Below are positions 35,622 through 38,718 of a DNA stretch of 49,873 bases, in pieces. Position 1 is the first letter of the stretch; every line of letters starts with the position of its first letter. A program made the translations under genes and the position numbers. The notes below the pieces were generated by a model. That model made no database searches and was not told where the DNA came from. It was given only the letters and a program-made list of their open reading frames with translations. The stretch covers positions 1-49,873 of the forward strand of contig MTLP01000017.1 of NCBI GenBank assembly GCA_002009975.1. The letters run 5' to 3'. The DNA is from Thermococcus sp. JdFR-02. GTDB lineage: Archaea; Methanobacteriota_B; Thermococci; Thermococcales; Thermococcaceae.

Positions 35622-36762
35622 AATGATTGAAAGGGAGAGAATTTTGGAGATTGTAGATAGTTACGACAAAGAAAACATTGTTATTGGAGCAATTGGGAGT
35701 CATTCTGCTTTAGATATTGCGGACGGTGCTAAGGAAGAGGGGTTTAAAACCCTAATAGTTTCACAAAAAGGGAGAGAAAAGACCTACGCTCAGTATTTTA
35801 AGCAAAAGAAGACTAGAGATGGACTAATAAAGGGCTTTATTGACGAAGTTATTGTTTTAGAGAAGTTTGGAAAAATAATTGATATCCAAGAAGAGCTTAG
35901 AAAACGAAACGTCATCTTCATTCCAAATCGCTCCTTTGTGGTTTACACAGGAATTGACAAAGTTGAGACCGAGTTTTTAGTCCCACTTTTTGGAAGCAGA
36001 AACTTACTCAGAAGTGAAGAGAGAAGTGAAGAGAAGAGTTATTATTGGCTTTTGGAGAAAGCTAAGCTCCCATATCCAGAGCCAATTGAAGATCCAAAAG
36101 ACATAGATGAGCTCGTTATTGTTAAACTTCCACATGCTAAGAAAAGACTGGAGAGGGGCTTTTTTACAGCGGCATCTTATAGAGAGTTTAGGGAAAAAGC
36201 AGAGAAATTGATTAAGCTAAACGTTATCACCGAGGAAGATTTGGCAAAGGCAAGAATTGAACGTTACATTATAGGACCAGTTTTCAACTTTGATTTATTC
36301 TACTCACCAATAGACGAGGAAATAGAGCTCTTAGGAATTGATTGGCGCTTTGAGACGAGCTTAGATGGACATGTTAGGTTGCCAGCCCATCAGCAATTAA
36401 CTTTACCAGAAAAGCAGTTTGAACCAGAATATACCGTTTGCGGACATGCAAGCTCAACCCTTAGAGAATCTCTACTTGAGAAGGTATTTGATATGGCAGA
36501 GAAGTACGTTAAGGCAACTCAAAAATATTATCCACCTGGCATAATTGGACCTTTCACCCTTCAGACGGCTCTTGATAAAGATTTGAACTTCTACATCTAC
36601 GATGTAGCCCCAAGAACTGGGGGAGGAACAAATATTCACATGTCCATGGGGCATCCCTATGGAAATGCCCTTTGGAGAAAGCCAATGAGCACTGGAAGGA
36701 GGATTGCGCTTGAGATTAAGAGAGCAGTTGAATTAGATGAGCTTGAGAAGGTTGTTACTTAG
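35614..36762 (+). CDS. purP: PurP-family ATP-grasp protein (second subfamily)
   Basis: GSHSALDI, PNRSF, LERGFF, LRESLLE and APRTGGGTN motifs. Confidence 0.85.
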   Translation: MSEMIERERILEIVDSYDKENIVIGAIGSHSALDIADGAKEEGFKTLIVSQKGREKTYAQYFKQKKTRDGLIKGFIDEVIVLEKFGKIIDIQEELRKRNVIFIPNRSFVVYTGIDKVETEFLVPLFGSRNLLRSEERSEEKSYYWLLEKAKLPYPEPIEDPKDIDELVIVKLPHAKKRLERGFFTAASYREFREKAEKLIKLNVITEEDLAKARIERYIIGPVFNFDLFYSPIDEEIELLGIDWRFETSLDGHVRLPAHQQLTLPEKQFEPEYTVCGHASSTLRESLLEKVFDMAEKYVKATQKYYPPGIIGPFTLQTALDKDLNFYIYDVAPRTGGGTNIHMSMGHPYGNALWRKPMSTGRRIALEIKRAVELDELEKVVT

Positions 36763-37199
36763 CTAGCTTTTTTATAGTTTTTCCTTCTTTTCCAGCTATC
36801 AATTATGAAAATCCGCTACCTTATGTCAGTTTTTGTGAATTTTGTTAGGTAATGTGGTCGGGATTGTGGGCATTATACTTAGTGTTTATGATATTTTGCG
36901 GAGGTTATCTCACTTGTTTGTGATTTTCTAAATAGGATTCTGATGATTTCTTGGTATTGCACTAACAATTCTCTCAGTGGTAGTTTACTACTCAAAAACC
37001 TCTCAGGTGATGTTTAAAGCCTTCACGTTCATCACTTTCTTTGAATAATGTTTTGATTGCTTAAAAGTGTTACTATTTATAATTATTATATATTCTACAT
37101 TGATTATAATGAAAATGGCAATAGTAATTAGAAATACAAAAAAACTTTAAATAGTATTCGGCAGCAAATTACAAGTGAGAAACTTGGGAGGTGTCCCAA

Positions 37200-37523
37200 A
37201 TGTGGAGAAAGGCTTTAGTGTTGGGGCTAGTGTTGATAGCAATTGGGATGGTGGTGGGAGGAGCAGCAGAACATGGGAAATATGCATTGCACAAATATAA
37301 TGAAGCAGAAGAAAAATACCATCATTACATGGGACTTTACAGACAGGCGCTACTAAATGGAGATATCACAAAGGCGGAATACTACAAGTCATTGGCAGAC
37401 GAATATAAATCTGAAATGGATAGTTATATGGTATGGATGGGATTATTTGGAACTGCTGCTATAGCTGGTGCAGGTAGTGGGAATTTAGCTATAACAGGTT
37501 TATCACTGCTGGGCATGGCTTGA
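37200..37523 (+). CDS. Small secreted protein with Gly/Ala-rich hydrophobic C-terminus; candidate antimicrobial peptide precursor
   Basis: GGAGGTG RBS; MWRK + hydrophobic signal; helical middle; tail MVWMGLFGTAAIAGAGSGNLAITGLSLLGMA. Confidence 0.7.
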   Translation: MWRKALVLGLVLIAIGMVVGGAAEHGKYALHKYNEAEEKYHHYMGLYRQALLNGDITKAEYYKSLADEYKSEMDSYMVWMGLFGTAAIAGAGSGNLAITGLSLLGMA

Positions 37524-37544
37524 AACAAGAGGGGGTATGTGAAA

Positions 37545-37739
37545 ATGGCTGGTGAGTATGTTTTGTTTCTTCTTTTTGTCCTTTTGATTGTCTTACTATC
37601 GGTCATGCAAAGAAGAAGGATAAAGAAATATCATGAATACATGGAACTATACAGACAAGCCTTAGAAAAGGAGGATGAAAAAAAGGCAAGGATATACAAA
37701 TCGTATGCTGAAGAGTACTCACATTGGTGGTTTATTTAA
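37545..37739 (+). CDS. Small membrane-anchored paralog of the upstream peptide's middle domain; candidate immunity protein
   Basis: N-terminal TM helix + RRRIKK, then 20/31 identical residues to 37200-37523. Confidence 0.7.
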   Translation: MAGEYVLFLLFVLLIVLLSVMQRRRIKKYHEYMELYRQALEKEDEKKARIYKSYAEEYSHWWFI

Positions 37740-37780
37740 GCCTATTAAATTTAAAAGAGCATTTAATTGGGGGAGCATTT

Positions 37781-38356
37781 ATGGGAATAGGGACTGTGAA
37801 ATCTTTAATATTATGTTCATTTCTTATATTTTTGGTCGGTTGTATGTTTGGTTTTAGTATTCTGGGCTATTACAAAAATCATCCATCGATTAATTTCAGT
37901 TTCACACCAATTTTGGGACACAGAACTAACGAAAGCATACATGCTTTCAAGTATATCTTTGTTAAAAATTTGAAAGTTATTTTATTAATTTCCTTCGGAG
38001 GTGTATTAACTTTTGGAGGTGTGACAATTTTAAATTTAATAATAAATGGAATGCCTCTGGGCATATCACTCCATTCTGCGTGGAACTTACGTCATTTGGG
38101 CGAGCTTAAAGCGTTTTTTCTACTCATTTTTCCTCATGGTGTTTTTGAAATCCCTGCTTTAATTATAGCCGGAGCAGCTGGCTTCAAAATCCCTTACGAG
38201 CTGTTAAGATTTGCTTTGGGCAAGAAAGAAGAAATTATAAGTGAGGAAGACGCTAAAGAGTTCTTCAAGCTTGTAGCGGTTTCAATAGTCTTAATATTCA
38301 TTGCTGCTTTAATTGAAAGCACTATCACGGCCAAAATAGCAGAGAAATTAGCTTAG
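37781..38356 (+). CDS. SpoIIM/DUF95-family membrane protein
   Basis: IFVKNL, NG and PHGVFEIPALIIAGAAG motifs; C-terminal AALIES. Confidence 0.9.
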   Translation: MGIGTVKSLILCSFLIFLVGCMFGFSILGYYKNHPSINFSFTPILGHRTNESIHAFKYIFVKNLKVILLISFGGVLTFGGVTILNLIINGMPLGISLHSAWNLRHLGELKAFFLLIFPHGVFEIPALIIAGAAGFKIPYELLRFALGKKEEIISEEDAKEFFKLVAVSIVLIFIAALIESTITAKIAEKLA

Positions 38357-38402
38357 ATAGTGATTGTAGATTTTTAATTCAATTAAAGTTAGCAATGTTG
38401 TT

Positions 38403-38462
38403 TTGACATTTTTTTGTCAAAATAAACTTAAAAACTTGCAACTTTTAACATTTATTTGATAA
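38403..38462. promoter_or_regulatory. Paired pur boxes upstream of purSQL
   Basis: TTGACA-N6-TGTCAA (38403) and TTAACA-N6-TGATAA (38445). Confidence 0.75.
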
Positions 38463-38472
38463 GGTGATCCTC

Positions 38473-38718
38473 ATGAAATATAAGGCAAAAATCATTGTCA
38501 AGCTTAAAGAGGGTTTGAACGATCCAGAGGGTAGAGTTATTGAGAAAGCTTTGAAGAATTTGGGCTATAAGATAGAAGAGCTCAAGGTTCCAAAATATTT
38601 TGAGCTTGTTTTCGAGAGCAAGAATCCAGAAAAAGAAGTCGAAGAGATGTGCAAGCGTTTGTTAGCAAACCCAGTTATACACGTCTATGAGTATGAAATT
38701 GAACCTTTAGGTGAGTGA
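38473..38718 (+). CDS. purS: FGAM synthase subunit PurS
   Basis: LNDPEG and [11 protein letters not shown] motifs. Confidence 0.96.

Follow-up and report, generated by a model that had tools for sequence, protein, structure and literature searches.

A polymorphic SpoIIM/DUF95 cassette family of Thermococci, with one copy inserted between purP and purS in Thermococcus sp. JdFR-02

SpoIIM/DUF95 proteins have been reported in two kinds of gene cluster that resemble the locus studied here. For circular bacteriocins, the available portions of two genome-mining papers describe SpoIIM as a hallmark cluster gene (PMC8659200, PMC7132975); characterised clusters contain at minimum a precursor, SpoIIM, and a transporter, some hold several precursor copies (PMC8659200), and loss of the DUF95 gene leaves the mature circular peptide inside the cells (Mu et al., cited in PMC7132975). 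In archaea, according to the accessible text of a 2014 study (PMC4158269), arCOG01996 (DUF95/COG1300) is among the commonest families of "dark matter" islands, and in Archaeoglobi, Pyrococci, and methanogens its genes cluster with those of several other membrane proteins, for which a novel membrane-associated defence was suggested; arCOG01994/01996 and their small membrane partners were read in 2015 as agents of membrane remodelling or vesicle formation (PMC5898192, likewise from the accessible text). Here, we describe a three-gene cassette (g1, g2, and g3, the last encoding a SpoIIM/DUF95 protein) that lies between purP and purS of Thermococcus sp. JdFR-02, on a stretch of 49,873 nucleotides (contig MTLP01000017.1 of assembly GCA_002009975.1) that supplies the coordinates below and is hereafter called the window. 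It belongs to a polymorphic family of cassettes that moves horizontally and is confined to Thermococci.

The window cassette fits the arCOG01996 cassette type, the number having been assigned from the published description. Shared with that type, as far as the accessible text describes it, are a SpoIIM paralog set apart from the conserved arCOG01994-type gene, units of three or four genes, small fast-evolving membrane proteins, and residence in "dark matter" islands of Thermococci/Pyrococci. In contrast, the Methanocaldococcus version comes with Yip1 and a nearby SalXY-like ATP-binding cassette (ABC) system, neither of which occurs in the Thermococcaceae cassettes. Our literature search returned arCOG01996 only from the 2014 and 2015 papers (PMC4158269 and PMC5898192), whose accessible text makes no mention of a constant leader, a mosaic SpoIIM, a g1-g2 duplication, or a link to circular bacteriocins, and whose supplementary tables may list the small-protein arCOGs. 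The search found no paper linking SpoIIM, Thermococcales, and bacteriocins, and a 2019 mBio survey of archaeal toxins may bear on the point; the available portions of the circular-bacteriocin mining papers (PMC8659200, PMC7132975) do not mention archaea, and the words circular, DUF95, and SpoIIM are absent from a 2026 preprint on archaeal bacteriocins. The cassette type itself is already in print. In the literature examined, parts of which were available only as excerpts, we came across neither the leader family nor the mosaic SpoIIM, nor the g1-g2 duplication, nor an affinity to SpoIIMs of bacteriocin clusters. The original prediction for this locus, made from the sequence alone, overlooked the prior print, the existence of a cassette family, and the nature of g2 as a partial copy of g1.

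The JdFR-02 genome spans 2.36 Mb in 44 contigs and is 99.99% complete. All three genes occupy one strand (+) of the purP/purS interval, with the following features:

36763..38463, + strand: inserted segment, from the purP stop to the purS ribosome site; the site is empty in 6 of 13 purS loci from relatives
36992..37199, + strand: conserved upstream region; 81% DNA identity to the cassette on contig C3 of the same genome, from 36992 into the leader
37141-37156, + strand: box AAAACTTTAAATAGTA, like a B recognition element (BRE)/TATA; unchanged or almost unchanged in 17 of 17 aligned cassettes
37187-37194, + strand: ribosome site GGGAGGTG, common to the same 17 cassettes
37200..37523, + strand: g1, 107 aa, ATG at 37200 and stop at 37521-37523; the variable "cargo" gene
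37200..37271, + strand: g1 aa 1-24, leader and first hydrophobic segment; signal-like, conserved
37314..37406, + strand: g1 aa 39-69, helical hairpin motif duplicated in g2; predicted local distance difference test (pLDDT) 88-95, turn at 53-55
37425..37520, + strand: g1 aa 76-107, Gly/Ala-rich uncharged C-terminal tail; pLDDT below 50 from residue 86
37545..37739, + strand: g2, 64 aa, ATG at 37545 or GTG at 37539; candidate immunity or partner protein
37781..38356, + strand: g3, 191 aa, ATG at 37781 in a frame open from TTG at 37724; SpoIIM/DUF95 protein with five predicted helices and 50-74% identity to further cassette copies
38132..38356, + strand: conserved C-module of g3, from PHGVFEIPA through loop GFKIPYELLRFALGKKEEIISEEDAKEFFKL to the last helix; at the DNA level 85% identical to the C3 copy
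38386..38437, + strand: inverted repeat I2 around a T7 run, 3' of g3; 23-nt arms, 74% complementary

The flanking genes were assigned by Pfam as purP (DUF1246 + DUF1297) and purS (PF02700). In 6 of 13 purS loci from relatives, the purP stop and the purS ATG are separated by 16 nt, and the empty-site sequence, ...GTTGTTAC(G/T)TGAGGTGAT..., is continuous in relatives, whereas in the window it is interrupted by ~1.7 kb (36763 to about 38463). Because the empty purP-purS site of relatives is split in the window, the cassette is an insertion. The placement of three co-oriented genes between purP and purS, as originally predicted, agrees with the coordinates, the Pfam flanks, and the empty site in relatives, and the AT-rich promoter of their own that had been proposed is borne out by the BRE/TATA-like box and ribosome site of all 17 cassettes in the alignment, which were drawn from 13 genomes. 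An Rfam scan of 36500-38600 returned a single chance-level match (E 0.43) and no family. Downstream of g3, the inverted repeat with its T7 run is a possible transcript end; between 38386 and 38475, this repeat and T7 run are followed by an A/T-rich stretch immediately before the purS ribosome site. Judging from the letters, the insert may terminate its own transcript and provide purS, formerly 16 nt behind purP, with a new start.

The same gene order was found at two other sites in the genome and in 21 other Thermococcaceae genomes, a recurrence that amounts to more than chance. JdFR-02 has four SpoIIM genes, three of them in cassettes (on the window contig, C15, and on contigs C7 and C3), and the fourth, on contig C6, is a distinct paralog whose neighbours are unrelated. 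In the C7 and C3 cassettes, a small protein that begins with MWRKALVLGLVL and continues with a remainder other than that of g1 is followed by small membrane open reading frames (ORFs) and then by a SpoIIM nearly identical to g3 in its C-terminal half. Searching 97 Thermococcaceae genomes with a profile of the first 32 residues of the leader-bearing proteins (strong match, E <= 1e-5) gave 41 strong matches with the MWRKALVLGLVL N-terminus in 21 genomes, and cassette-type SpoIIM genes were found at 43 places in 22 genomes. As many as 38 of the 41 leader genes have a cassette-type SpoIIM on their own strand at a distance of 12 to 1,105 nt, with SpoIIM downstream in 30 and the leader gene directly 3' of SpoIIM in 8; among the three unlinked genes, two are on short contigs ending nearby (3,508 and 396 bases), and one (G086:C44) has no SpoIIM nearby. 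Reciprocally, a leader gene lies within 3 kb of 39 of the 43 SpoIIM places, the other four being fragments in genomes G015 and G119. The original prediction had named lack of linkage to DUF95 genes as the outcome that would speak against it; given linkage of 38 in 41, the outcome was clearly the reverse. Behind every distinct leader gene (37 of 37), a small ORF with a hydrophobic segment begins between -23 and +179 nt from the stop.

The spread of the family is narrow and its copies are uneven. With 29 aligned members as query, a word-indexed search through 5.8 billion proteins matched 30 proteins, among which the named ones are "hypothetical" and come from Thermococcus, Pyrococcus, or Thermococci metagenome-assembled genomes (MAGs), one of them (P0015) bearing the automatic UniRef name "Pilin". 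The species represented include Pyrococcus horikoshii, Thermococcus aggregans, and T. argininiproducens. HMMER over 1.84 billion representatives gave 25 clusters (50% identity) at E <= 0.001, 17 of them at 1e-10, all of 56-110 aa and most beginning with the same leader. The 29 cargo members showed no recurring Pfam family and no match to a bacteriocin family (0 of 29), and five further cargo types yielded nothing above threshold, with only sub-threshold glycine-zipper matches. Many cassette fragments with stops occur across the 97 genomes. Each of these genomes also has a separate conserved SpoIIM paralog, and identity to g3 is accordingly bimodal, at 50-86% for the cassette type and 28-40% for the one-per-genome type, which form separate clades in a tree.

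Cassettes are mosaics of constant and variable parts. Among 20 complete cassettes, mean pairwise identity is 75% over leader residues 1-24 versus 26% over the rest of the cargo, and 40% over SpoIIM before the PHG motif versus 80% from PHG onward. Variation in the cargo remainder tracks that of the SpoIIM N-part (Mantel r 0.52, p 2e-4), shows no correlation with that of the C-part (r 0.07, p 0.13), and the cargo also correlates with the downstream small membrane protein (r 0.74, p 2e-4), in a sample of kin genomes and co-inherited neighbours that makes these p-values overstatements. At least 15 cargo types were distinguished among 32 cassettes from pairwise-identity matrices; single-linkage BLAST clustering over-merged the Gly/Ala-rich tails. 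The downstream protein was of a shared type in 23 of 28 same-cargo-type pairs versus 1 of 468 different-type pairs, a contrast of which adjacency alone predicts some. A tree of the N-part (70 residues before PHG) separates two classes (100/100) and places the window g3 with three other g1-type cassettes (91/82), whereas a DNA tree of the C-part (204 nt from PHG) sorts by host genus (86/81) with the classes mixed, for example by pairing a class-A with a class-B copy (95/91); both short trees have many open forks. Alignable DNA among the three JdFR-02 copies is limited to two blocks, one covering roughly 200 nt of upstream sequence and ~90 nt at the start of the leader gene (81% between C15 and C3), and the other of the SpoIIM 3' part (85% between C15 and C3). 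These blocks are 75-85% identical among the three copies and the C-part proteins 90-92% identical; since the DNA differs by 15-25% and the proteins stay so close, conservation of the C-part reflects constraint and not only recent copying.

The variable proteins share a general build. After residue 22, the cargo measures 51-88 aa (median 73, 29 proteins), with a net positive charge in 20 of 29 and a hydrophobic C-terminus free of a charged tail in 27 of 29, the uncharged run having a median of 22 residues, or about one membrane span; small-xxx-small patterns recur within several types. In most, residues 20-22 read GG-A, a junction that would suit signal peptidase. In the leader, M1, W2, K4, L6, G9, V11, L12, and G16 are invariant (22 sequences). 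Weak matches to the leader profile are the N-termini of ORFs of 330-450 aa, and the two inspected both have signal-like n-h-c starts, so the leader looks like a Thermococcaceae secretion signal, in sequence resembling the Sec type; eight invariant positions exceed what a generic signal needs, which suggests a specific partner.

Several cassettes have recurrent neighbours. On contig C47 of genome G118 (222000-241000, L049), a tandem array strings together five to six cassettes, no two of the same cargo type, interleaved with ORFs that we take by eye to be nucleotidyltransferase/HEPN pairs and ATPase-like genes of 423-429 aa; the same ~429-aa gene is found 3' of cassettes in several other genomes of that genus. 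In G118, G023, and G020, cassettes sit among genes that, again by eye, are presumably toxin-antitoxin-like. Beside the C3 cassette of JdFR-02 lies an operon of ABC-2 permease, ABC ATPase, a 739-aa protein with multiple immunoglobulin-like domains, and a second ABC-2 permease (C3:5129-12960, L081), and the same operon borders cassettes in G018, G033, G118, and G086. Its proximity to the C3 cassette suggests a hot spot for insertion rather than a partnership. As a candidate for the missing exporter it was rejected: the large protein is present in 66 of 97 genomes, cassette-free ones included, and mostly far from cassettes.

g1 begins with MWRKALVLGLVLIAIGMVVGG, basic and then hydrophobic, continues with a Tyr/Glu/Lys-rich middle, and ends in the Gly/Ala-rich MVWMGLFGTAAIAGAGSGNLAITGLSLLGMA, with 33 residues after the last charged one and Gly plus Ala making up 0.43 of the final 30; this is the layout given, down to the quoted tail, in the original prediction, which had also stated that the precursor family was not recognised. 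Indeed, g1 has no Pfam or NCBIfam match above threshold, and the other searches led to no known family either: a PDB sequence search gave nothing useful (best E 1.2), and the ESM Atlas returned only generic helical hairpins, all below the bar for naming. Full-length relatives (59-65% identity) are confined to a few Thermococcus genomes, and outside Thermococcaceae none of 24 genomes from the same order or class has a match. The AlphaFold2 model, built on a 7-sequence alignment (mean pLDDT 69.4) and for the g1 cargo type alone, is one long hairpin (helix 2-52, turn 53-55, helix 56-91) that is most confident over residues 30-80 (pLDDT 88-95) and pairs the leader with the tail. A fold search of the PDB gave 0 matches at E <= 0.001, generic hairpins being best, and the likeness to PspA/Vipp1/ESCRT-III hairpins is generic only (all E > 0.2). 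The compact saposin-like fold suggested earlier as a check was thus not what the model gave. A g1 paralog on contig C7 (C7:51788-52081; L001:1112-1477, minus strand) lies directly 3' of SpoIIM and is 44% identical to g1 across residues 1-98; a single in-frame TAA breaks it in two, leaving a leader portion of 46 aa and a Gly-rich tail of 60 aa.

g2 is predicted to be a single-pass protein, with one N-terminal hydrophobic segment followed by RRRIKK and a polar helix, and has no Pfam or NCBIfam family above threshold. Residues 28-58 (37626-37718) match g1 residues 39-69 at 20 of 31 positions (65%, E 3e-11 by BLASTP), and the corresponding DNA repeat, D1, is 73% identical (37314-37375 versus 37626-37687). 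The shared motif spans the hairpin turn, and therefore g2 is a membrane-anchored copy of the g1 hairpin tip. Homologs of g2 occur in 5 of the 97 genomes: directly 3' of g1 in the four that hold a full-length g1-type gene, and once as an orphan. In G035 (contig C27, L043:7751-8536), a g2-type gene stands directly behind the SpoIIM of a cassette with another cargo type and shares one open frame with it; from its sequence, it may be either an orphan g2 or a SpoIIM fusion.

g3 belongs to Pfam SpoIIM (PF01944), scoring 105.8 bits (cut-off 26.9; E 2.8e-30) over positions 1-162 of the 163-position profile, and falls far below the NCBIfam sporulation equivalog TIGR02831 (27.6 bits against 100.2). The SpoIIM/DUF95 signature named in the original prediction is present as PHGVFEIPA, within which P118, H119, G120, and E123 are invariant in 25 aligned SpoIIMs, the housekeeping paralog included, and lie in model helix 108-145; PHGxxExP in a membrane helix is what we take to be the conserved SpoIIM/DUF95 motif. 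The stretch that follows, GFKIPYELLRFALGKKEEIITEEDAKEFFKL, is nearly invariant in the cassette type alone. The AlphaFold2 model (pLDDT 82.9, predicted template-modelling score 0.79) has helices at 3-31, 52-76, 80-102, 108-145, and 155-190, and a variable loop at 33-51 of low model confidence. It has 0 fold matches in the PDB at E <= 0.001, a PDB sequence search gave no match, and a phage collection contained no match to g3. A scan of genome contigs gave nine loci, five of which are contigs of Thermococci/Thermoplasmatota MAGs with the same cassette. A predicted complex of g3 with g1 scored 0.01 against a mark of 0.32, was run without controls, and counts neither way.

Circular-bacteriocin cores are compact helical (saposin-like) structures with adjacent termini, and the known peptides measure 58-70 aa. 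Among plasmids, g3 matches eight records, of which two were opened. It is 34-38% identical to the SpoIIMs of annotated circular-bacteriocin clusters on plasmids of Bacillus thuringiensis and Clostridium perfringens; the match on B. thuringiensis pYGD30 is 38% identical over 70% of the length (E 2e-10), and on the C. perfringens plasmid SpoIIM accompanies an annotated circularin/uberolysin precursor and an ABC ATPase. Like the window cassette, the uberolysin/carnocyclin cluster of pYGD30 has a small precursor gene in first place, SpoIIM in the same operon, and small hydrophobic accessory proteins. Unlike it, that cluster includes Yip1, a 572-aa membrane protein, ABC ATPases/permeases, and a site-2 protease, none of which is present in the archaeal cassette; moreover, circular-bacteriocin precursors are unrelated to g1 in sequence, and the g1 model is not compact. 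In a 38-row tree, cassette SpoIIMs group with two bacterial and the Methanomethylovorans plasmid SpoIIMs (94/87), and housekeeping Thermococcaceae paralogs and three DPANN-type sequences fall apart from this group. Since the two bacterial rows are g3's own best plasmid matches, branches are long, and sporulation SpoIIM was left out, there is moderate support, from sequence, for a family branch common to cassette and bacteriocin-cluster SpoIIMs, and common chemistry is not implied. Yip1 is absent from the JdFR-02 genome in a genome-wide search. A SpoIIM/DUF95 gene beside a small precursor gene, as in circular-bacteriocin loci, is found family-wide (38 of 41). Nonetheless, the cassette does not fall in the circular-bacteriocin class on the features tested, because it has no transporter, there is no Yip1, the ABC-2 operon is general, and g1 is an extended hairpin with no fold match; it may still act in a bacteriocin-like way. 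The original prediction had noted that no ABC exporter or Yip1 gene is adjacent and offered supply in trans or a partial cassette as the explanation; the observation holds for the cassette, and supply in trans fails for Yip1 because the genome has none.

Other comparisons point in part to polymorphic toxin and class II bacteriocin loci, which also combine a constant N-terminal targeting segment with a variable C-terminal part (75% versus 26% here). Further likenesses to such loci are an apparently variant-specific small membrane gene immediately downstream, orphans, arrays, rapid turnover, and glycine-zipper-like tails in several cargo types, the latter as sub-threshold matches only. The cassette differs from them in having a half-variable SpoIIM paralog in every unit, in having no C39-peptidase ABC exporter or other delivery machine, and in its leader, which is hydrophobic and Sec-signal-like rather than amphipathic and of the double-glycine type. 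An archaeal parallel is found on plasmid pMETHO01 of Methanomethylovorans hollandica, whose SpoIIM is 37% identical to g3 over 96% of the length (E 5e-24) and groups with the cassette type on a long branch. Upstream of this SpoIIM lie two nearly identical, very hydrophobic ORFs of 66 aa (L082, 2892-3092 and 3490-3690) with no family match. Duplicated small hydrophobic peptide genes ahead of an archaeal SpoIIM recall the cassettes, but these peptides have no MWRK leader and are unrelated to g1, and a divergent Yip1 and ABC permeases lie nearby. In this one locus examined, pMETHO01 looks like an independent archaeal "small peptide + SpoIIM" cluster.

The data support a family that behaves like a conflict system, being multi-copy, polymorphic, and patchy, with orphans and pseudogenes. 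We read it as a conflict system with a toxin and a protector because linkage is near-obligate and three modules diversify in matched fashion between two constant ones, and because of the patchy multi-copy spread, the arrays, the orphan g2, the broken copies, and insertion at unrelated sites. Our tentative preference, held at somewhat less than even confidence and drawn from sequence comparison, is for a polymorphic membrane-active peptide (archaeocin-like toxin) and immunity system in which SpoIIM handles the leader. The g1-type protein would be the membrane-active peptide, its leader constant and the sequence behind it hypervariable, membrane-seeking, and in most cases rich in Gly and Ala; cognate immunity would come from one or two small membrane proteins particular to each variant, here g2; and the SpoIIM paralog would handle the precursor. 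Its constant C-part may recognise the constant leader for insertion, processing, or export, and its variable N-part, together with the small membrane protein, may accommodate or neutralise the variable part, a division of labour proposed because constant pairs with constant and variable with variable. We infer the toxicity of g1, the immunity function of g2, any cleavage, export, or cyclisation, and the contacts among the three proteins. Of the bacteriocin-like, membrane-active system originally predicted, the DUF95 linkage, the conflict-like family, and the SpoIIM grouping speak in favour, and the g1 fold, the lack of a transporter, and the lack of Yip1 against.

A number of observations weigh against this toxin/immunity reading. 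No transporter, ABC exporter, protease, or ATPase is present in the window cassette, nor is there an ATPase in the other cassettes examined. Adjacent genes are expected to vary together simply because they are inherited together, and the make-up of the 38-row tree described above counts on the same side. The GG-A junction is not kept in the closest relatives of g1, which have VVGEV or VFEEV there (GE-V or EE-V at the junction), and the model suggests that g1, with its two hydrophobic ends, could be a two-pass membrane protein that retains its "leader". By the positive-inside rule, the hairpin of g1 should face outward and that of g2 inward, as judged from the sequences and the g1 model, which is a poor fit to direct one-to-one neutralisation. 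RNA-library contigs fit only conserved modules of related cassettes: two metatranscriptome assemblies match 37163-37237 (leader start) and 38142-38428 (SpoIIM 3' part) alone, at 90-99%, and then diverge, and therefore come from related cassettes and are no evidence for transcription of the window genes. Finally, those who first described arCOG01996 cassettes favoured, in the accessible text, defence or membrane remodelling.

Among the alternatives, a strict circular bacteriocin, with the leader removed, the core joined head to tail, SpoIIM acting as in bacterial clusters, and g2 as immunity protein, would accommodate predicted cores of 51-88 aa, which overlap the 58-70 aa of known members, and cargo that in 27 of 29 proteins ends hydrophobic and without a charged tail. 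SpoIIM is a hallmark gene in the available portions of the mining papers (PMC8659200, PMC7132975), and g3 both resembles and groups with the SpoIIMs of annotated clusters. We regard it as rather unlikely all the same, given no transporter or ATPase in the cassette and no Yip1 in the genome, no match to a known precursor family, and a g1 model in which the leader lies against the tail of an extended hairpin rather than a compact bundle with adjacent ends, with no PDB fold match at E <= 0.001. The patchy spread, the rapid turnover, and the neighbours in G118, G023, and G020 presumed by eye to be toxin-antitoxin-like would also suit a membrane-associated anti-virus defence, in which a membrane-damaging effector is restrained by the small membrane protein and SpoIIM until infection. 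The accessible text of the 2014 study reads arCOG01996 (DUF95) clusters of Pyrococci and others in this way (PMC4158269), but matched diversification of effector and partner, here over at least 15 types, is more typical of toxin/immunity pairs acting between cells. Together with cassettes that, where examined, have no sensor or nucleic-acid-binding component, and a phage collection that yielded no match, this makes anti-virus defence doubtful.

A non-toxic membrane complex for remodelling or vesicles, with the small proteins as structural partners of SpoIIM, follows the 2015 proposal for arCOG01994/01996 and their small membrane partners (PMC5898192, accessible text) and would fit both a two-pass topology, with which the g1 model agrees, and the generic likeness of g1 to PspA/Vipp1/ESCRT-III hairpins (all E > 0.2). 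Such a housekeeping role sits poorly with presence in 22 of 97 genomes, divergent multiple copies, pseudogenes, and insertion into the pur operon, as well as with the separate conserved SpoIIM paralog already in every genome, and we consider it unlikely. Self/non-self recognition could also account for hypervariable modules that follow a constant targeting segment and have matched partners: they would be membrane or vesicle identity tags, read by those partners with no killing, and another hypervariable Thermococcales surface module has been interpreted so in the available part of its description (PMC8416519). The variable parts here, however, are short, hydrophobic, and Gly/Ala-rich, with little exposed surface and no adhesion-type domain, which leaves identity tags improbable. 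For pilin-like subunits, cut after MWRKA as class III (prepilin) signals and assembled into filaments, one can cite the automatic name "Pilin" of the relative P0015 and K-A-L-V-L after a short basic start, which we assume to resemble archaeal prepilin sites. With no assembly ATPase, platform protein, or prepilin peptidase in the cassettes examined, no soluble head domain, a second hydrophobic segment at the C-terminus, and linkage to SpoIIM instead, this is the remotest of the readings and very improbable.

Under the toxin/immunity reading, a more daring version would be a minimal peptide-weapon system in which SpoIIM/DUF95 alone is the maturation and export machine: the C-part (PHGxFEIP helix plus KIPYELLRFALGKKEEIITEEDAKEFF loop) would dock the leader, the N-part would fit one of at least 25 cores and possibly cyclise it, and the small partner would protect the producer. 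We think this improbable enough to be offered as speculation; if true, it would give DUF95 a direct, testable function and reveal a large family of heat-stable archaeal antimicrobial peptides. To our knowledge, no biochemical role has been established for DUF95, in bacterial circular bacteriocins included; knowledge of archaeal antagonism is scant, with very few characterised archaeocins. If the cassettes are toxin/immunity units, Thermococcaceae, which are open to genetic work, carry at least 15-25 membrane-active peptides adapted to heat, together with the immunity genes that match them. As a natural experiment on DUF95 recognition, the mosaic SpoIIM is unusually clean, with bearing on the unsolved role of DUF95 in circular-bacteriocin biosynthesis. 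If they are not toxins, the cassettes are still, on these data, a mobile module of membrane proteins that has entered a core purine operon and not destroyed it.

Beyond the assembled genomes, a search of sequencing runs found the stretch in two DNA metagenomes. In metagenome run X2, a DNA contig joins 37266 to 38098 through 1,284 other letters and holds a different variable block between the same conserved ends, in what may simply be a paralogous copy or in another strain.

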